From a virus (taxonomy: Duplodnaviria > Heunggongvirae > Uroviricota > Caudoviricetes), in the IMG/VR virus record IMGVR_UViG_2619619135_000001, positions 1 through 40,341 of that record: 40,341 bases of DNA, one strand, 5' to 3'. The notes under the pieces are model-generated. The model was not told the origin of the DNA. It saw only the letters and a list, made by a program, of their open reading frames with translations, and searched no databases. Shown piece by piece: positions 1,929 through 28,605 of the stretch. A program made the position numbers and the translations under genes. Every line of letters begins with the position of its first letter. The stretch's first letter is position 1.

Positions 1929-2762
1929 TTATTTCTGTAATCGGTTTATATTAACGTAAAGCATCTCGATTAGTTCTTTTGCATTTTTACTATAGTGCAA
2001 TTCTCTATGGCAATTCGGACAAAGGGCAACACAGTTATCTGTTGTATCAGCACCACCTGAAGACAGGGGAATTACATGATGCACTTCCAAATATGGGTTT
2101 CCATCATTTAAATAAAACGGAGCATTTTTACCACAGTTTTCACATATACCTTTACTTTGCTGTAAAATCCAAGCTTTTACCATCGGGTCTCGGACATAAA
2201 CTTTTTGTAGTCTTTCTACCTCAACTGGTTTCCTGGAGCCCTCGGGTTGACTCAACGTTTTCTTAATTAATTTACTAACCCTCATATTCAGAAGCGATTC
2301 ATCATCTGTAGGCTGTGAAAGCTCTGATAGTTCTCCACGTATTATAGACGCCCAAAAACTGTCACTATAAATACCTGGAACATTTATCAATATTCGTTTC
2401 GTTCTATTGCCGGAAGGAATTTCCTTTCTCCCCGTACGACTAAAATAAGCCTGATAACCACACATCTTCAAGCGTATATCGCGGGGGCTATTACCAATCA
2501 AAGTAAAATATTCACCAGGATGGATTTTTCTTTCATCCAAAGAATGCATATGTTTTCTGACTGATGATGACGCCAGATATACTACGACTTGGGATACACC
2601 AGAATCAACCAACCGTTCAATGATATAATCAAGAGCGATATTGTAATCTTTGTTTCTGTCACCCGGCCCCCACGACTCAAGGATTAGACCATAAACACCA
2701 TCCTCTTCACCTATCGAACACTCAGCTTTCAGTTCAATTCCATTATTATCAAAAACATGCAT
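1929..2762 (-). CDS. mcrA: 5-methylcytosine-specific restriction endonuclease McrA (HNH nuclease), 277 aa
   Basis: 277-aa ORF with a C-terminal HNH motif (CENCG...HHVIPLSSGG...CPNCH). Sequence and position next to pinE match e14 McrA as I recall it. Confidence 0.9.
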   Translation of the reverse strand: MHVFDNNGIELKAECSIGEEDGVYGLILESWGPGDRNKDYNIALDYIIERLVDSGVSQVVVYLASSSVRKHMHSLDERKIHPGEYFTLIGNSPRDIRLKMCGYQAYFSRTGRKEIPSGNRTKRILINVPGIYSDSFWASIIRGELSELSQPTDDESLLNMRVSKLIKKTLSQPEGSRKPVEVERLQKVYVRDPMVKAWILQQSKGICENCGKNAPFYLNDGNPYLEVHHVIPLSSGGADTTDNCVALCPNCHRELHYSKNAKELIEMLYVNINRLQK

Positions 2763-2868: not shown

Positions 2869-3423
2869 TTATTTATCCCCTGCAGGAAACCTCTTATACA
2901 AAGTTGACACACCAACATCATAGATAATCGCCACCTTCTGGCGAGGAGCTCCTGATGCAATTAATCGTCCGGCCTGTTCCCATTGTTCTGGTGTAAGTTT
3001 GGGACGACGTCCACCAATTCGTCCCTGTGCGCGAGCAGCTTCCAGTCCAGCTTTTGTTCTTTCAACAATCAGTTCACGCTCCATTTCAGCCAGGGCACCC
3101 ATCACATGAAAGAAAAAGCGCCCCATTGGGGTACTGGTATCAATTGAATCCGTCAGACTACGAAAGTTGATGCCTCGTTCGCGCAACTCCTCCACCAGCA
3201 CGACAAGATGCCGCATACTACGCCCCAGCCGATCCAGCTTCCAGACAACCAGAGTGTCCCCTGCCGATAATGTCCTGAGCAGTTTTTTCAGTCCCGGCCT
3301 TTCGGACTTTGTACCGCTTACCTTGTCTTCAAAAATCAGCTCGCATCCTGCACAGTTCAGCGCATTACGTTGTAGATCTGTGTTCTGGTCATTTGTTGAT
3401 ACGCGTACATAGCCAATAAGCAT
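2869..3423 (-). CDS. pinE: Serine DNA invertase Pin (Hin/Gin/Cin family)
   Basis: Seen: MLIGYVRVSTNDQNTDLQ resolvase N-terminus with the catalytic serine, and a C-terminal HTH. Start moved to ATG at 3421-3423 rather than the upstream in-frame MASFLLL extension. Adjacent to the invertible segment. Confidence 0.9.
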   Translation of the reverse strand: MLIGYVRVSTNDQNTDLQRNALNCAGCELIFEDKVSGTKSERPGLKKLLRTLSAGDTLVVWKLDRLGRSMRHLVVLVEELRERGINFRSLTDSIDTSTPMGRFFFHVMGALAEMERELIVERTKAGLEAARAQGRIGGRRPKLTPEQWEQAGRLIASGAPRQKVAIIYDVGVSTLYKRFPAGDK

Positions 3424-3449
3424 GGTAGATCCCCCTGACAAAAGCAGGA

Positions 3450-3959
3450 ATGATGCCATTTGCTCGTTATTTCTGCATTTTCATAAACGTTGGTTTGGGA
3501 GAAACGATAAATAAAGCCTCCGGAGCTATGCAGAAATCGGCTAATGGAGCTGATATTTCTGATGTATCAGCCTTCCGAAATGCGCTCCAGTTAGGGACCG
3601 CCGCAACACGAGATGTTGGAGCAGATAATGCCTCGAAGTTACTGGATTTAGACAGCTTCAGGTCAATGATGTCAGGGAATGGCTACATCTACATTCCATG
3701 CATTGCGACGACAGGAAACCCGGTGAAACTTATGTTGCAGTGGGGAACGGTGGCAACACAAAAGGGAGCTGATGCTGGATATGCCTTACCATTTGCTTTT
3801 CCCTATGCAGGCTTATTTGCGACCGGAAACCGTGGAACATCTGGCTACAATGCCGCGATGAATGTGCGTATTGCCAGCAGAACGCATATCAGTATTCAGA
3901 ACTGGTCGCCATCCGGAGAGGGCACCGAAGATTGTTGTTTTATCGCGCTGGGGTATTAA
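3450..3959 (+). CDS. Silent alternative tail-fibre C-terminal cassette (promoterless Stf variable part)
   Basis: Seen: the ORF has no tail-fibre N-terminus; it encodes NVGLGE across the recombination site and would be fused in frame to the Stf constant region after inversion. Confidence 0.65.
   Translation: MMPFARYFCIFINVGLGETINKASGAMQKSANGADISDVSAFRNALQLGTAATRDVGADNASKLLDLDSFRSMMSGNGYIYIPCIATTGNPVKLMLQWGTVATQKGADAGYALPFAFPYAGLFATGNRGTSGYNAAMNVRIASRTHISIQNWSPSGEGTEDCCFIALGY
3478..3503. other. Pin recombination site, pin-proximal (gix/hix-like 26-mer)
   Basis: Seen: TTTTCATAAACGTTGGTTTGGGAGAA. Its reverse complement shares the first 14 nt (TTCTCCCAAACCAA) with the site at 5399-5424. Confidence 0.7.
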
Positions 3960-10792: not shown

Positions 10793-11287
10793 CTATCTGA
10801 GTTGAACATCAATGGAATAAACATTACCACTCTTTATAAATTTAGAGTCCGTCCTTTCATCAAAGGATTCAAATGACTGTACCTTTGAAAACTTTTTCAT
10901 TTTATTTTCAAAAATACTTTCATTAACACCAGTTAAATACTTGAATGCTCTACCAGCAAGGACCTCATTACTTAAAGTTTGTGTGTTTTTATTGTCCTTG
11001 AAAAACCAAATAATAACCTTTTGTGGACATGATGGATTATAAACAGATATATAAAACTGCGGCTCATATTTTTCATCAGCATCATCGCCAAGCATTTCTT
11101 CAAAAGACAATTCTCTCCTGAATTCATATTGACGCTTAGTTATTCCTTCATCCTTTACTATCTCTTGCTTAACTGGTGCAATACCTATAGAAGAGATTAA
11201 TTCTGACTCATTAAAGCTGAACTTACACTCTTCCGCTGCCAAGTTAAAAGATAAAAGTGCAGATATAAAAAACACAAAGATACGCAT
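10793..11287 (-). CDS. Secreted protein of unknown function (AT-rich moron in the tail operon)
   Basis: Seen: signal-peptide-like N-terminus MRIFVFFISALLSFNLA|AEE; AAGGG SD 6 nt before the third ATG; a TATAAT element upstream; codon usage is visibly more AT-rich than the neighbours. Confidence 0.6.
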   Translation of the reverse strand: MRIFVFFISALLSFNLAAEECKFSFNESELISSIGIAPVKQEIVKDEGITKRQYEFRRELSFEEMLGDDADEKYEPQFYISVYNPSCPQKVIIWFFKDNKNTQTLSNEVLAGRAFKYLTGVNESIFENKMKKFSKVQSFESFDERTDSKFIKSGNVYSIDVQLR

Positions 11288-11386
11288 AATCATCCCTTCA
11301 ATCATTTGTAAGGAATGATTATATTAACTACTTAAAGTTGAAAACCCAAATTATGCCAGACAAAAACACATTAATCATTTTGTACA

Positions 11387-18885: not shown

Positions 18886-19572
18886 TTAGAAGTTCAGATT
18901 TTTCAGTGCATTCAGTGCAGAGCCCACATCCTCAGCGTCGCGCAGGGACAGTGCGCCATAGCCCCCGGTCATGAATGCTTTGGCCTGGGTACGGGAGAGT
19001 CCGACATCACGCAGGACTCTTTCGATTTTTTTCTGTTCGGGGATTTCCCCGCGGGCCAGTGCGTTCTTGACGTCGCTGATCCGCGCCTCGTCGTTAGACG
19101 GGAACGTCACCAGGCTGACTTCCCAGAGGTCGATTTCTTTCAGCAGAAAGGCTTCTTTGCTCCGGTCGTATTCCCAGTCTTTCAGGACGTACCCAATAGA
19201 AAGGCCGGTTAACGAACCGGCCTTCATGTGTGCATGTGCGCGTTTTGCGAGGGGATCATCATCAATAAGCAACCGTCCCCTGACGTAAAGCCCGACATCG
19301 TCTTCCTTCATTTCGGTGTAAACACCGATGGGTTCATCCATGCGGTGCTGCCAGAGCAGCGCAGGTAACGCTTTTCTGTCACTCCACGCCCGCAGGGAAG
19401 CAGCAAATGCCCCGGACATCACCACATCATCGTGGCTGTCCTTTACACCAAAGACGGAGCCATACCCTTCAAACTCACCGGAGTCACTGACAGATTTCAG
19501 ACTCAGCGGTACATCAAGACGTTGTTTCGTCTGCATTGGCGTTATCCTTCTGCTTACCGGCTTTACTGCCAT
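18886..19572 (-). CDS. Prohead maturation protease (HK97 family)
   Basis: 228-aa ORF between portal and capsid; the true start may be the internal Met at about 19536. Confidence 0.75.
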   Translation of the reverse strand: MAVKPVSRRITPMQTKQRLDVPLSLKSVSDSGEFEGYGSVFGVKDSHDDVVMSGAFAASLRAWSDRKALPALLWQHRMDEPIGVYTEMKEDDVGLYVRGRLLIDDDPLAKRAHAHMKAGSLTGLSIGYVLKDWEYDRSKEAFLLKEIDLWEVSLVTFPSNDEARISDVKNALARGEIPEQKKIERVLRDVGLSRTQAKAFMTGGYGALSLRDAEDVGSALNALKNLNF

Positions 19573-23298: not shown

Positions 23299-23649
23299 TC
23301 ACCTCAGCCGTTCACGGGCCGTCTTCGCCTTATGACACGGCCAGCACAGGCTCTGCAGATTACTGTCGGCATCTGTGCCGCCATGCGCTTTAGGGATGAT
23401 GTGGTCAACGGTTTTCGCCTCACGCACCACACCAGCACGCAGACATAACTGACACAGGCCTTTGTCACGCTTCAGCACACGTTCACGGATAGCATCCCAT
23501 TTCGAACCATAACCGCGCTGATGACGGGATTGTCCTGGCTTGTATTGCTTCCAGCCTTCGTTTTTGTGGCTTTCGCAATAGCCTGACGGGTCAGTGGTGG
23601 TGTGGCGGCAGCCGCGAACGCGGCAGGCTTTTGGGGTTCGCGGTGGCAT
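23299..23649 (-). CDS. HNH endonuclease (terminase-associated)
   Basis: 116-aa ORF with Cys pairs and HGG...N...H motifs (CQLC...DHIIPKAHGG...CWPCH). Confidence 0.8.
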   Translation of the reverse strand: MPPRTPKACRVRGCRHTTTDPSGYCESHKNEGWKQYKPGQSRHQRGYGSKWDAIRERVLKRDKGLCQLCLRAGVVREAKTVDHIIPKAHGGTDADSNLQSLCWPCHKAKTARERLR

Positions 23650-23687
23650 TAATGCTTCCCCTTAAACTATTACGATAGAGCAAACCA

Positions 23688-23725
23688 TGGAGATAAAAAT
23701 AAAAAGCCGCCCGGAGGCGGCGGTA
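23688..23725 (-). terminator. Intrinsic terminator directly after the protease moron
   Basis: Seen (minus strand): GCCGCC-tccg-GGCGGC followed by TTTTTATTTTTAT, beginning 4 nt after the protease stop. Confidence 0.6.
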
Positions 23726-23726
23726 A

Positions 23727-24629
23727 TCAAAATTTGAATATTACACTCTTACCATCTTCGCTTAATTGAAGACCATTACCTAATTTCAGATTCGCTTGTA
23801 ATGCAGACTGTCTAAATCCCTGAAGCCAAGATTCAAGGTTGAAATTATTAACTATATCGTCAATTAATGACGCCTTCCAAATTATTCCAAGCTGCAATGA
23901 CTCGGTATGCGTAACAAATTTTTTAGCATCATTTGAAACTTGCTCAAGATTCAGCTCACTGTTGAACATATTCATGCTGGCGTATATACCTAAGAAATGA
24001 TAAGCATTACCTGCATACATATTTCCATCTTTATCACCATACCCTCCTTTGGCCACTATCATGGCAGGAGATCCAGACATTCCAGGGAAAGCTGAGATAT
24101 CTAATACAATTGTTTTTTCACCATTGAAATCATATTCAGGCTCACTGGCGACACTTCCTGTTTTCCAAACAGGAAGCATATTTGCAGCATCATGAAAACC
24201 ATATGGATAGCCAATTAGTGTTACTCGTGCTGTCGGACCTTTATAAACACCCTCGTTCTTGACTCCACTGTTTAATGCTTCGAATTCGCAATCTTTAAGA
24301 TTATCTCCAAACAATGGAATTACTGCTATATCAGCATTTTTCTCACTTGCATGCTGAAGCCAAGTTGGTTTGCCGTTTTTAAAAAGAGGAATCTCAATGG
24401 TTTTGCTGCCACCTGATTTCACCCTAACTTTGAAGGAAATTGAGTCACCTAAAGGCGATTCTTTTGATTGTGGGCTATGTCCGGTGACAACATGATAATT
24501 TGTTACCAAGAATAAAAGTTGTTCTTCAATAGATTGATAAAAGAACCCTGTTCCCTGTGAAACTTGCACGCCATTCAAATTAAGACTAACCATTGTAGTC
24601 ACTAATGATAATGGATCTATATTTCCCAT
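23727..24629 (-). CDS. Trypsin-like (PA clan) serine protease, cytoplasmic, AT-rich moron
   Basis: Seen: catalytic-triad-like motifs TNYHVV (His), ADIAVIPL (Asp), GMSGSP (Ser); no signal peptide; AAGGAG SD 8 nt before the ATG. Confidence 0.7.
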   Translation of the reverse strand: MGNIDPLSLVTTMVSLNLNGVQVSQGTGFFYQSIEEQLLFLVTNYHVVTGHSPQSKESPLGDSISFKVRVKSGGSKTIEIPLFKNGKPTWLQHASEKNADIAVIPLFGDNLKDCEFEALNSGVKNEGVYKGPTARVTLIGYPYGFHDAANMLPVWKTGSVASEPEYDFNGEKTIVLDISAFPGMSGSPAMIVAKGGYGDKDGNMYAGNAYHFLGIYASMNMFNSELNLEQVSNDAKKFVTHTESLQLGIIWKASLIDDIVNNFNLESWLQGFRQSALQANLKLGNGLQLSEDGKSVIFKF

Positions 24630-24694
24630 TCTGACATCTCCTTCAGGACATAATATAGCATCCTATCCTTTAATGAAGGCTATAGTCCACTATA

Positions 24695-25159
24695 TCATTT
24701 TTGGCACTGTCCCTTGATATAGCTCTGAAGATAGCTGACTTGCTTCGTCACTGTGACGATTCGCTCTCTAAGGGCGAAATAATCCCGTTCAGCGGAGTCA
24801 GTAAGTCTGGGGGAGGAAGCATCGCCCATGCCACCGGTGCCGGTCGCTCCGTTTGCTGAACAGTTTGCTTTGACCCGCAGCCGCTTACGGCCAGCATCAA
24901 TATCCCTACGCAGATTACTGATAGTGATTTTCGCATTAGCTAACTCCTTTGTATATCTGGCATCGAGTTCTGCTACATCACGTTGACGCTTCTGCATATC
25001 AGCGATGGTCGCCATAGCCGAATCTAATGCCATAGCATTCTCATCACGCTGCTTTTTGTATTCAATGGCTTTATTGTGGTAATGATTCACTGAACAGATA
25101 AAAGAACCAATGACAGTAACGAAGAATGCAGCGATAACCAGCTTATAGCTCAACTTCAT
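24695..25159 (-). CDS. Rz: i-spanin Rz
   Basis: 154-aa ORF with an N-terminal TM segment; similar to lambda Rz as I recall it (e.g. ASPRLTDSAERDYFALRER). Confidence 0.85.
   Translation of the reverse strand: MKLSYKLVIAAFFVTVIGSFICSVNHYHNKAIEYKKQRDENAMALDSAMATIADMQKRQRDVAELDARYTKELANAKITISNLRRDIDAGRKRLRVKANCSANGATGTGGMGDASSPRLTDSAERDYFALRERIVTVTKQVSYLQSYIKGQCQK
24748..24936 (-). CDS. Rz1: o-spanin lipoprotein Rz1 (embedded in Rz, +1 frame)
   Basis: Seen: lipobox LAVSGC and a Pro-rich segment (PPPDLLTPLNGIISP) resembling lambda Rz1. Confidence 0.8.
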   Translation of the reverse strand: MRKSLSVICVGILMLAVSGCGSKQTVQQTERPAPVAWAMLPPPDLLTPLNGIISPLESESSQ

Positions 25160-26210: not shown

Positions 26211-27365
26211 TTGTCCCCAACAAAAACGAAAAAAATGCCAAACCTAAAAATCAACCACGTTATTGTTCACGAGCTATTAAAAGAGAAAGATAAAGATTTT
26301 GACCACTCGAAACGATACAACCTGCGTGATTCTGAACTTGATAAAACAAACGCTGTTGTAATTTCCCTTGTTGAAGGGGTCGTTGCTCTTTATGGCTCTA
26401 AAGGCAACTCAGCACATTACGGTGTATTCAAAAGCGCCCCAAAAGAACAAGGTCCAATCCCGGTATTATTTGATCAGTATCACCAAACAGCAACTTCTCA
26501 ATCTATTGACTTTATTAACTTAACAAAGAAAATAATGGAACAAATGTATCATTCAGCCAAATCTCAATCTTGGTCTTCTGGAGGATACATTGTTTTTACT
26601 GATTATATTTCAGCAGGCATCAGATATTTTCTTGTAGCTATGATAAAAAAAACGAATGGAGTAACAATTAGCGAAAAACTCGAGCCAGAAGAAATGATAC
26701 ATCTGGAGTTAAATAATATTAACCAAGCTGCAAAAATAAATTTTCACTTATACTATCAATATCACCAAGCTGATGATGTTCAAAAAACAGAATTAAGCTA
26801 CTTAAGCTTCATCAACAAAACTACGGGACAGTCTGCTGCTGCATATTTCATCGCAGCTCTTGGGTGTGATAAGGGGATCGCATCAGCTGGAGCAACCCGC
26901 AAACTTCCAAATGAGGTAAAAAAGTTTTTTAAAAAACACAAAGAATTACGCCCTCATGCAAATGCAGTAAGAAACGCAGTAATAAAATATTTAGAATCCC
27001 AGTTCGGAAACAATTGCTCTGCAAAGCTTACAGATATTGAATCTATTTCTGCAACTCACATGGCATTTTTAGATGATGATAAAAAAGCCCCCCTAGTAAG
27101 AGAGCTCATGCAATATTTAAACAGCGAGGAGGTTAGAGTTCCTTCGGAGTTCGTCATAAATAAAACATCTCTTGACAAATTAAGGAATGTTATTTTCAAA
27201 GCAGATCAATATAGTTTTAATTTCGACAAAGATTTGCTTGGCATAACTACTGATGCTACAATTTTCTATGACGCTGAGCATGGGAATCTTACATTTAACA
27301 GACTCCCTATAGAAGCACAAAAAAAAATAAAAGATGCCTTAAAAGAAATGAATTTGTTAAACTGA
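26211..27365 (+). CDS. NdpA/YejK (NA37)-family nucleoid-associated protein homologue, moron gene A
   Basis: Seen: AT-rich ORF on the opposite strand to the late genes; track start is TTG at 26211, alternative ATG at 26235. Motifs match NdpA as I recall it: INHVIVHELLK, GGYIVFTDYISAGIRYFLVAMIK, SYLSFINKTTGQSAAAYFIAALG. Confidence 0.65.
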   Translation: MSPTKTKKMPNLKINHVIVHELLKEKDKDFDHSKRYNLRDSELDKTNAVVISLVEGVVALYGSKGNSAHYGVFKSAPKEQGPIPVLFDQYHQTATSQSIDFINLTKKIMEQMYHSAKSQSWSSGGYIVFTDYISAGIRYFLVAMIKKTNGVTISEKLEPEEMIHLELNNINQAAKINFHLYYQYHQADDVQKTELSYLSFINKTTGQSAAAYFIAALGCDKGIASAGATRKLPNEVKKFFKKHKELRPHANAVRNAVIKYLESQFGNNCSAKLTDIESISATHMAFLDDDKKAPLVRELMQYLNSEEVRVPSEFVINKTSLDKLRNVIFKADQYSFNFDKDLLGITTDATIFYDAEHGNLTFNRLPIEAQKKIKDALKEMNLLN

Positions 27366-27384: not shown

Positions 27385-28605
27385 ATGAATCAGTTGAAAA
27401 TTGTAGTAGATTTATTTAGAAAATCTAAAACACCCCATTTCGACGGTGTTAAGTTTTCGGCGTCAATAGATTATACAACAGATATTAAAATGCTGTTGAC
27501 TACTATGCTAGATGATAATTTCAACGAAGGTTCATTCGATGAAATTGAAATTGATGGTTGCGAGATTTACGATGGAAATGATCTGCCTAATTCAGGAACC
27601 ACTTTAACATATTCATTTAAAGTCGCACGTAGAAGTGCAGATAGATTTTATGCTTCAAAAAGAGAGTTTATAGAAATTAATACTCTTCGAAAAGGCGTAA
27701 TGCCTAAGAACTATTACATTGCAGAAAGTGATTTTTATTCTTATGATGCCCAAAAGCCTGACTATATAATGACAATTGAAAAAATTTGTCAATTAATTTC
27801 ATGTTTATCGAACATAGCTCATTTCCACGATACCAAAAGTGATAGAAACACCAGTTTCTATCGCCTTGTTTTTGTACTACATTCAGAATCGAAATCAACA
27901 ACAGCAGTAATTGAAACTAATTTAACAGAGGAGGTCCTTGATATTGAAGACCTAAATATCAATCTTATAGCCAATTTATCTAAATCCGATGCAAGCAAAG
28001 ATAATCACTATCTTGAAAAACTGAACACATTCAGAAATACACTGATTGAATATATTTCAAAGACAAATGGCTCATTTATCAATATAATAAAAAACTGGAA
28101 CGATATCAATGAGTTATATAGCAACAACCTTGCTGTATATATGTCTGCATTCTCTTTCCATAAAACAAGAAAAGAGATTGCAGATGCTGAAATTGATTAT
28201 GCAGACAAAATATCTAAAGTCGTATCTGAAATAGCCAACAAAGCTTTAGCCATCCCTGTATCACTAGTTGCTGCAATATCGATATTTCAAATGACAGGGG
28301 AATTAGTTTCTATAGTGGCATTTTTAGGGATCTTATTGACATCTATTATTACTTATCTAGTCGCAGTGTCTCAAAAACGTCAACTTGAACGCATAATTCA
28401 TGCAAAAGATACCTTATTCGATACTATGATGAACAGATTGAGTGAAGAGCAAAATGAACTCAAACTCAGATTACAAATAGCTCAAATAGAGTTAAACAAA
28501 AATGAAGTATTCTGCATAAGAGTATTGGACTTAATGCGCTGCTTATCATGGATGCCAACATGTGTTGGCATATTAGCTTTATTAATAAATGACGTGCTAA
28601 TTTAA
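27385..28605 (+). CDS. Membrane-anchored protein of unknown function, moron gene B
   Basis: Seen: 19 nt after gene A; about 280-aa soluble N-domain then hydrophobic stretches (AIPVSLVAAISIFQ...VSIVAFLGILLTSIITYLVAV and C-terminal CVGILALLINDVLI); its stop overlaps the Q stop convergently. Confidence 0.65.
   Translation: MNQLKIVVDLFRKSKTPHFDGVKFSASIDYTTDIKMLLTTMLDDNFNEGSFDEIEIDGCEIYDGNDLPNSGTTLTYSFKVARRSADRFYASKREFIEINTLRKGVMPKNYYIAESDFYSYDAQKPDYIMTIEKICQLISCLSNIAHFHDTKSDRNTSFYRLVFVLHSESKSTTAVIETNLTEEVLDIEDLNINLIANLSKSDASKDNHYLEKLNTFRNTLIEYISKTNGSFINIIKNWNDINELYSNNLAVYMSAFSFHKTRKEIADAEIDYADKISKVVSEIANKALAIPVSLVAAISIFQMTGELVSIVAFLGILLTSIITYLVAVSQKRQLERIIHAKDTLFDTMMNRLSEEQNELKLRLQIAQIELNKNEVFCIRVLDLMRCLSWMPTCVGILALLINDVLI

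Follow-up and report, generated by a model that had tools for sequence, protein, structure and literature searches.

A stand-alone trypsin-like serine protease gene in the post-lysis slot of an e14-type lambdoid prophage: a candidate anti-phage moron

The window analysed here is the whole of a 40,341-nucleotide stretch of viral DNA (positions 1 to 40,341 of the IMG/VR record IMGVR_UViG_2619619135_000001), which is an essentially complete e14-type lambdoid prophage of E. coli with a lambda-type integrase, an S24 repressor, Q, HK97-type head genes, ymfR and a Pin-like invertase. On its minus strand, a gene encoding a 300-aa S1 (Trypsin_2) protease occupies positions 23727..24629, as supported by the list of open reading frames (ORFs) and by profile matches. 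The upstream genes are, in order, the holin, a GH24 lysozyme and Rz/Rz1 (24695-25159 and 24748-24936), and downstream are found an HNH endonuclease (23299-23649), a P27-type small terminase (TerS) and the large terminase (TerL). The protease ORF starts with ATG, ends with the TGA at 23729-23727 and has no in-frame start further upstream, so that an N-terminal extension is impossible. Direct reading of the sequence places a Shine-Dalgarno motif AAGGAG (24638..24643, minus strand) 8 nt before the ATG, and a candidate extended -10 element, TGCTATATT (24652..24660, minus strand), inside the 65-nt leader running from the Rz stop to the protease start. Past the stop, a terminator-like hairpin, GCCGCC-TCCG-GGCGGC, with a T-run covers 23696..23721 of the minus strand; the hairpin proper (23721-23706) has 6 G-C pairs and is followed by TTTTTATTTT.

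The base composition of the protease gene is foreign relative to that of the downstream genes, with a guanine plus cytosine (GC) content of 0.373 (GC3 of 0.279) versus 0.575 for HNH, 0.595 for TerS and 0.543 for TerL, the upstream lysis genes being intermediate (0.467 for Rz). An initial annotation of the locus had described a visibly AT-rich 300-aa ORF with an AAGGAG in front, a position between Rz/Rz1 and the HNH-terminase block, the triad-context motifs TNYHVV, DIAV and GMSGSP, and a strong hairpin plus T-run within 4 nt of the stop. The ORF, its composition, its ribosome-binding motif, its position and the three motifs (residues 43-48, 100-103 and 183-188, respectively) are as described, and so are the hairpin and T-run, except that they start after 5 nt. 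Purifying selection acts on the protein, as seen from a ratio of non-synonymous to synonymous substitutions of 0.05-0.12 in comparisons of alleles; these values, together with the 526 homologues retrieved by a word-indexed protein search, rule out a pseudogene or a chance ORF.

The assignment to the trypsin-like proteases was then supported at several levels. The protein matches Pfam Trypsin_2 (PF13365) over residues 26-189 with 39.8 bits, above the gathering cut-off of 27.6 (E-value 9.6e-10), and this is its only significant Pfam match. It also matches PHROG 7688 (phrog_7688, function unknown; E-value 1.3e-102) and carries the RefSeq product name 'S1 family peptidase', while no family model of NCBIfam matches it. 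The residues of the proposed triad, His46, Asp100 and Ser185, are invariant in 30 homologues (alignment A1) and in the 26 of a second alignment (A2), as the initial annotation would lead one to expect. In the alignment of 30 homologues, which come from several phyla (Enterobacteria, Nitrospira, Bacteroidota and others), the GMSGSP motif around Ser185 is likewise invariant, as are the family-specific motifs GYPYG, LPxWKTGxxASEP and SLxLGxxWK. The AlphaFold2 (AF2) model, with a mean predicted local distance difference test (pLDDT) of 82 and a predicted template modelling score of 0.81, consists of one chymotrypsin-type double barrel (residues ~10-252), in which the last two strands of barrel 2 are unusually long (209-227 and 238-252). 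When this model was searched with Foldseek, 170 PDB chains were retrieved at an E-value of 0.001 or less, the best 50 of the 170 being all chymotrypsin-fold proteases; the best matches were the staphylococcal Esp, V8 and Spl proteases and DegS/HtrA (E-value 1e-7, template modelling score 0.4-0.47). At the sequence level, only exfoliative toxin B was matched in the PDB, marginally (E-value 0.003).

The closest fold relatives, the staphylococcal S1B enzymes (V8/Esp, SplA-D and exfoliative toxins) and HtrA/DegS (S1C), are high-specificity endopeptidases, but they are secreted or periplasmic and possess signal peptides, pro-peptides or PDZ domains, none of which is present in the window protein. 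The latter differs also by the elongated last strands of barrel 2 and by the LPxWKTGxxASEP and SLxLGxxWK motifs. Membership of the HtrA/DegP/DegS group is not indicated, as neither a PDZ match in Pfam nor an export signal was found, and two helices with a disordered tail follow the barrels. No signal peptide was detected: the most hydrophobic 15-residue stretch of the N-terminus reaches 1.29 on the Kyte-Doolittle scale, the threshold for signal or membrane segments being 2.0, and the N-terminus is made of conserved core beta-strands (residues 11-33, pLDDT ~95). The gene product is thus predicted, from its sequence and its model, to be a catalytically competent, cytoplasmic, single-domain chymotrypsin-fold serine endopeptidase, and the earlier description of a stand-alone cytoplasmic protease is upheld by the model, the hydropathy and the start sites. 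A secreted virulence protease is ruled out for the window protein by the lack of a signal peptide and of an upstream start. The prohead protease is ruled out as well, the HK97-type prohead protease being a different gene (18886-19572).

The C-terminal 90 aa, singled out by the initial annotation for analysis, do not form a separate domain. According to the AF2 model they comprise the last two strands of barrel 2, two helices (253-270) and a low-confidence tail of ~26 aa (275-300, pLDDT ~34), which rules a further domain out. The region from residue ~253 to 300 (window 23727-23870) is nevertheless distinctive. In the enterobacterial prophage clade (homologues P0001-P0031), a C-terminal tail of 26-48 aa with a variable linker terminates nearly always in F-x-[K/R/G]-F (FKF, TKF, MRF, FGF or CKF), whereas the wider family ends ~25 aa past the WK motif. 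A second AF2 run, with the alignment restricted to the tail-bearing enterobacterial clade, gave a worse model (pLDDT 67) in which the tail, still at ~34, again had no confident position, so that it was uninformative as to docking. The F-x-K-F tail could be an autoinhibitory or docking motif.

Homology searches place the protease in a broad family of small stand-alone Trypsin_2 proteins. An exhaustive search yielded 25 clusters (50% identity) at an E-value of 1e-30 or less and 1694 at 1e-10 or less, mostly of full-length proteins of 250-300 aa. Among the PADLOC profiles, the window protein matches PDC-S45 over almost its entire length (profile positions 18-283 of 293, 150 bits, E-value 1.3e-44) and, more weakly, the protease effectors LmuA (E-value 1e-7) and RT-Protease_XI (E-value 5e-7). 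The PDC families are 145 candidates drawn from genes that lie within BREX, DISARM and type I restriction-modification loci (Payne et al., bioRxiv 10.1101/2024.01.29.577857). The window protein is a member of PDC-S45 from which nothing structural distinguishes it, both being single genes with no conserved partner; the locus therefore adds a member to an already catalogued candidate family and is not a new kind of system. To what was known of PDC-S45, the present locus adds that enterobacterial lambdoid prophages keep the gene in a fixed slot after the lysis genes, that alleles replace one another at this slot and that the clade has an F-x-K-F tail of its own. The only further mention of PDC-S45 that we found in the literature is a PADLOC match in a Sinorhizobium prophage.

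The exact gene is present in 3 of 5426 complete E. coli genomes, in one of which it is interrupted by an IS3 element, and matches to the query, mostly to its HNH or Rz part, occur in 2106 of the same genomes. Among deposited phages, a nucleotide search gave no match to the protease gene, and a protein search retrieved Shigella phage SfII only. The slot had been said to hold usually nothing in core phage genomes; in three inspected prophages with the same HNH-terminase backbone it is empty in one (CP053736) and holds unrelated small genes in the two others (CP070115 and CP122923). The survey of the post-Rz slot that the initial annotation had called for shows homologues in the same place elsewhere: they are found (43-92% identity) directly after the lysis cassette and on the same strand in at least 21 of 25 IMG/VR viral loci, and in the same position in Serratia, Enterobacter and Leclercia prophages. 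The position is the same whichever of at least four types of lysis cassette and several types of terminase the prophage has. In a Leclercia prophage (L095, 7019-7657), a 212-aa gene with a PhageMetallopep domain lies directly downstream of the protease homologue and is a second putative protease in the slot.

The comparison of sister prophages shows that divergent alleles replace one another at this position. In L015-L019, L025 and SfII, the holin, lysozyme, HNH, TerS and TerL are 93-100% identical to those of the window; the protease is only 46% identical and the spanin is of a different type. The nucleotide homology to L015, L017, L077 and SfII ends at 23650-23653, the breakpoint at 23650 falling one base before the HNH start codon. 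It restarts inside Rz, at 25075, or at 24820 in L076 and L078. L004, which has an unrelated backbone, shares 86.6% nucleotide identity with the window over 23669-25019 and has a protease allele of 92% protein identity. Breakpoints and sharing with L004 together delimit the exchanged unit: in addition to the protease with its leader and terminator, it comprises the 3' part of Rz/Rz1 and forms a mosaic variable module at 23651..25074 of the window. The enterobacterial clade is strictly phage-borne, with an allelic replacement typical of conflict genes. Two alleles only 46% identical to each other are interrupted by IS3-family elements, in L002 (6078-8316, E. coli 20A24) and in SfII (L087, 3515-5241), where the protease gene is split by IS911. 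Since SfII is a characterised temperate phage, the protease is dispensable for phage viability. These two independent knock-outs are compatible with a carriage cost or with a preference of the elements for AT-rich targets.

Some clades have a further ORF, of only 75-94 aa, between the spanin and the protease (L007 5696-5935, L011 4808-5035, L012 5707-5934, L020 2087-2371, L021 5654-5938 and L022 5655-5939). These otherwise dissimilar ORFs have in common the C-terminal motif W-x-x-P-x-[D/E]-L-G-[R/K]-P-V and end 61-66 nt before the protease ATG, a spacing like that of the window. No such ORF is present between the spanin and the protease in the window.

We interpret the gene as an accessory gene of the moron type, carried by an intact e14-like lambdoid prophage. 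The moron concept was developed for lambdoid phages by Juhala and Hendrix, an example being lambda bor downstream of Rz. As in these cases, an extra gene with a deviating GC content and its own terminator lies between otherwise adjacent genes, in the classic cargo slot between lysis and terminase genes, and it is present in some relatives and missing from others, as described above. It differs in that the exchanged unit includes part of Rz/Rz1 and is not a clean insertion, and in that the promoter amounts to the candidate -10 element TGCTATATT. A comparison of the leaders of the alleles by eye showed AT-rich -10-like hexamers only, which do not decide for a promoter. The leader is 61-66 nt long in most prophage alleles, despite differing upstream genes, and most of the other prophage alleles possess a hairpin and a T-run 3' of the stop comparable to those of the window. 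The terminator argues for expression in the lysogen, because a terminator inside an operon antiterminated by Q would function only for local, non-antiterminated transcripts. A weak promoter in the leader would thus give, in the lysogen, a transcript ending at the gene's own terminator without switching on the late genes; once the prophage itself enters lytic growth, the gene would additionally be read within the Q-antiterminated late transcript.

Outside phages, the homologues were inspected for their neighbours, with Pfam annotation. A homologue from Echinicola adjoins an AAA_15/21 ATPase, a Zeta toxin and ParE, and one from Nitrospira adjoins TIR, HNH and caspase-TPR genes; in a JGI metagenome lineage a TraG-like ATPase and DUF4062 stand beside the homologue, and transposases, ParDE or a serine recombinase do so in other lineages. 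In all, defence, toxin-antitoxin or mobile-element neighbours are found in 6 of the 6 non-phage lineages inspected, a count made without a background control. More distant plasmid relatives (29% identity) lie beside a dGTPase or a RelE/ParE pair. Neither a conserved partner gene nor a neighbour cluster common across phyla was found in the phage and non-phage loci inspected, the lineage-specific synteny being limited to the lysis genes in Enterobacteria and to RND/ECF genes in Vicinamibacterales.

Taken together, the match to PDC-S45, the non-phage neighbourhoods, the allelic turnover at a fixed slot, the knock-outs by insertion sequences and the other defence cargo of the prophage described below lead us to favour anti-phage proteolysis. 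We propose, with a confidence evenly divided between acceptance and rejection, that the gene encodes a narrow-specificity protease expressed in the lysogen, which blocks superinfecting phages by a logic like that of Lit in an unrelated fold. A narrow specificity would be in agreement with that of the fold neighbours in the staphylococcal V8, Spl and exfoliative-toxin group. As no sensor domain is found, the simplest model is that of an enzyme needing a phage-derived substrate or co-factor: a superinfecting phage would bring the trigger or substrate, the protease would cleave either one of the phage's proteins or an essential protein of the host, and phage production would be blocked, the clade-specific F-x-K-F tail perhaps, and speculatively, restraining the enzyme beforehand. 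In a stronger form of this proposal, which we consider improbable, a single-domain protease of ~270 aa would be by itself a complete immune protein, kept latent in the lysogen, perhaps because its own tail serves as a tethered pseudo-product, and firing only on a specific phage protein or host-phage complex. Such a latent single-protein immunity would explain the swapping of divergent alleles at one fixed lambdoid slot.

The initial annotation had compared the gene with Lit. Lit of prophage e14 is a zinc metalloprotease (Peptidase_U49) that cleaves EF-Tu when the Gol peptide of T4 appears. The two resemble each other in being single protease genes on an e14-type prophage and in the proposed logic of an enzyme dormant until triggered by a phage. 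The comparison holds for this logic only, because Lit is a zinc metalloprotease: it has an HExxH centre, whereas the window protein has a Ser/His/Asp chymotrypsin fold and a different position in the prophage, and neither Pfam nor PADLOC gave a match to Lit. The earlier suggestion is therefore retained as an analogy alone, and the sequence would be as compatible with abortive infection as with the direct cleavage of a phage protein.

A second comparison can be drawn with the systems Hachiman (HamMAB), AVAST, Lamassu (LmuA-protease) and DRT/RT-protease, in which a trypsin-like protease fused to a sensor activates a separately encoded metallo-beta-lactamase (MBL) pro-nuclease (Tuck et al., PMC12799240). 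The window protein has the same Trypsin_2-type domain, which in these systems performs the executing immune step; it differs from their fused modules because it stands alone, with no adjacent MBL gene and with Rz and a packaging HNH as neighbours. The HNH itself was considered as a pro-nuclease partner and ruled out, the same HNH being present in relatives without the protease.

Several observations weigh against the defence proposal, and they bear at the same time on what else the gene might do. A first group concerns its expression and position. A scan for two-hexamer sigma-70 consensus sites found none in the 65-nt leader, and the adjacency to the lysis cassette, in the same orientation as the late operon, would fit a late phage function equally well. 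If the protease were translated only from the late transcript that depends on Q, like the holin, endolysin and spanin, it could act during or after lysis, for example on envelope proteins or receptors of the dying cell or its debris, or on host proteins late in infection, and thereby improve the release or survival of the progeny. The strict position directly after the spanins in the viral loci and in Serratia, Enterobacter and Leclercia, the exchange of the protease and the 3' part of Rz/Rz1 as a single module and the negative promoter scan all speak for this alternative. So does a further point: in about 16% of the family members examined, the N-terminus is extended by what resembles a Sec signal or a membrane segment (P0070, P0077, P0082, P0121, P0125, P0126, P0128 and others), so that the family is not uniformly cytoplasmic; part of the wider family is probably extracytoplasmic, and extracytoplasmic substrates are possible for this fold. 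In the enterobacterial prophage clade, however, the proportion with such extensions is 0, and the window protein has no export signal. Against this alternative, the strong terminator, kept in kind across alleles, makes sense only in the absence of antitermination, most phages sharing the backbone lack the gene, which is disrupted in the viable SfII, and the close non-phage homologues lie in defence, toxin-antitoxin and transposon neighbourhoods. We regard a lysis-linked function, the main rival of the defence proposal, as unlikely on balance.

A second group of observations comes from the chromosomes of Vicinamibacterales. In metagenome-assembled genomes of Vicinamibacterales/Acidobacteriota (L043, L048, L051, L058, L060, L065 and others), a homologue of ~39% identity lies in a conserved chromosomal synteny, with a resistance-nodulation-division (RND) efflux operon (membrane-fusion protein, pump and outer-membrane factor) divergently oriented upstream and, on the same strand downstream, an extracytoplasmic function (ECF) sigma factor and a Ser/Thr kinase. 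This arrangement hints at a role in regulatory proteolysis in that lineage, and the family is therefore not exclusively a defence family. By extension, the protease made in the lysogen could cleave a host regulator or another host protein and alter physiology, for example stress signalling, a non-defensive lysogenic conversion with which the expression in the lysogen suggested by the moron architecture would also be in agreement. The relatives in question are, however, only ~39% identical, chromosomal and in a non-mobile context, whereas the enterobacterial clade is strictly phage-borne with a replacement of alleles like that of conflict genes, and the defence-candidate profile and the defence-gene neighbours point elsewhere. 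Such a conversion appears to us distinctly unlikely.

The remaining points against the defence proposal concern mechanism and precedent. Regulation of the protease by its tail is speculation, because no sensor domain is present and the tail (pLDDT ~34) is not confidently modelled. The 145 PDC candidates, PDC-S45 included, are called untested by the paper that defined them (bioRxiv 10.1101/2024.01.29.577857). Our search of the literature on PDC-S45, stand-alone trypsin-like defence genes, lambdoid hotspots and S1 peptidases in phage defence found no experimental work.

Two further possibilities were weighed jointly: (i) a counter-defence protease degrading host immune proteins and (ii) the toxin of an addiction module stabilising the element. 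Proteases do serve as toxins in ietAS, according to the passages of PMC13069673 that cite this system, and the two independent disruptions by insertion sequences could mean a cost to the host. Against a toxin, no antitoxin-like partner is conserved, the small upstream ORFs being restricted to some clades and missing from the window. Against counter-defence, the position in the late operon is unusual and the occurrence of homologues in chromosomal defence-type islands is hard to reconcile with such a role. Counter-defence genes are typically early genes. We consider both possibilities very improbable.

In the stronger form of the defence proposal, the principle of Lit would have arisen anew in an unrelated fold. 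The multi-domain Hachiman, AVAST, Lamassu and DRT systems are known to use protease domains as effectors; no example of a tested stand-alone S1 protease acting as a single-gene defence was found in the literature, and the main text describing the validated DefensePredictor systems mentions no protease. The gene offers a compact and easily cloned test case from E. coli, of ~1 kb with its native leader and terminator, and its natural alleles (46-92% identity) in isogenic prophage backbones are convenient for the mapping of specificity. Should the gene protect, escape mutants would reveal the trigger or target and how a protease lacking a sensor stays harmless; should it not protect, its strict linkage to the lysis cassette would point to an unrecognised late phage function.

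The prophage carries further defence-type cargo. At 1929-2762 (minus strand), a 277-aa HNH protein is encoded by mcrA, with 99.9% DNA identity to mcrA of K-12, and a Pin-type invertase (2869-3459, minus strand) adjoins it. On this evidence the window is related to the defective e14 element but intact, and it carries the known restriction gene of e14. On the strand opposite to the late operon, an AT-rich pair (GC content 0.32-0.35) located between Q and the holin encodes an NA37/YejK-like nucleoid-associated protein (26211-27365, plus strand; Pfam E-value 4e-46) and a 406-aa protein (27385-28605, plus strand) in whose translation hydrophobic C-terminal segments can be read. The pair has no PADLOC match and matches the NCBIfam models DS1_1_antiphage and DS1_2_antiphage with E-values of ~1e-29, far below the curated cut-offs, so we take it for a divergent relative of DS-1 (DefensePredictor) and of type II PANGU. 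With the protease, mcrA and the DS-1-like pair, the prophage carries three separate defence-type cargo loci. This phage lineage has a second cargo hotspot in the slot between Q and the holin, which holds the two-gene candidate PDC-M53A/B (E-values 2e-32 and 3e-54) in SfII (L023/L087, 36173-37195 and the adjacent gene), L017, L018 and L025, and yet another gene pair in L015, L016 and L019. In the tail-gene region, a 170-aa ORF (10793-11305, minus strand), which has no match in Pfam or NCBIfam, coincides with an AT-rich dip (GC content 0.36-0.41) and may be another moron.

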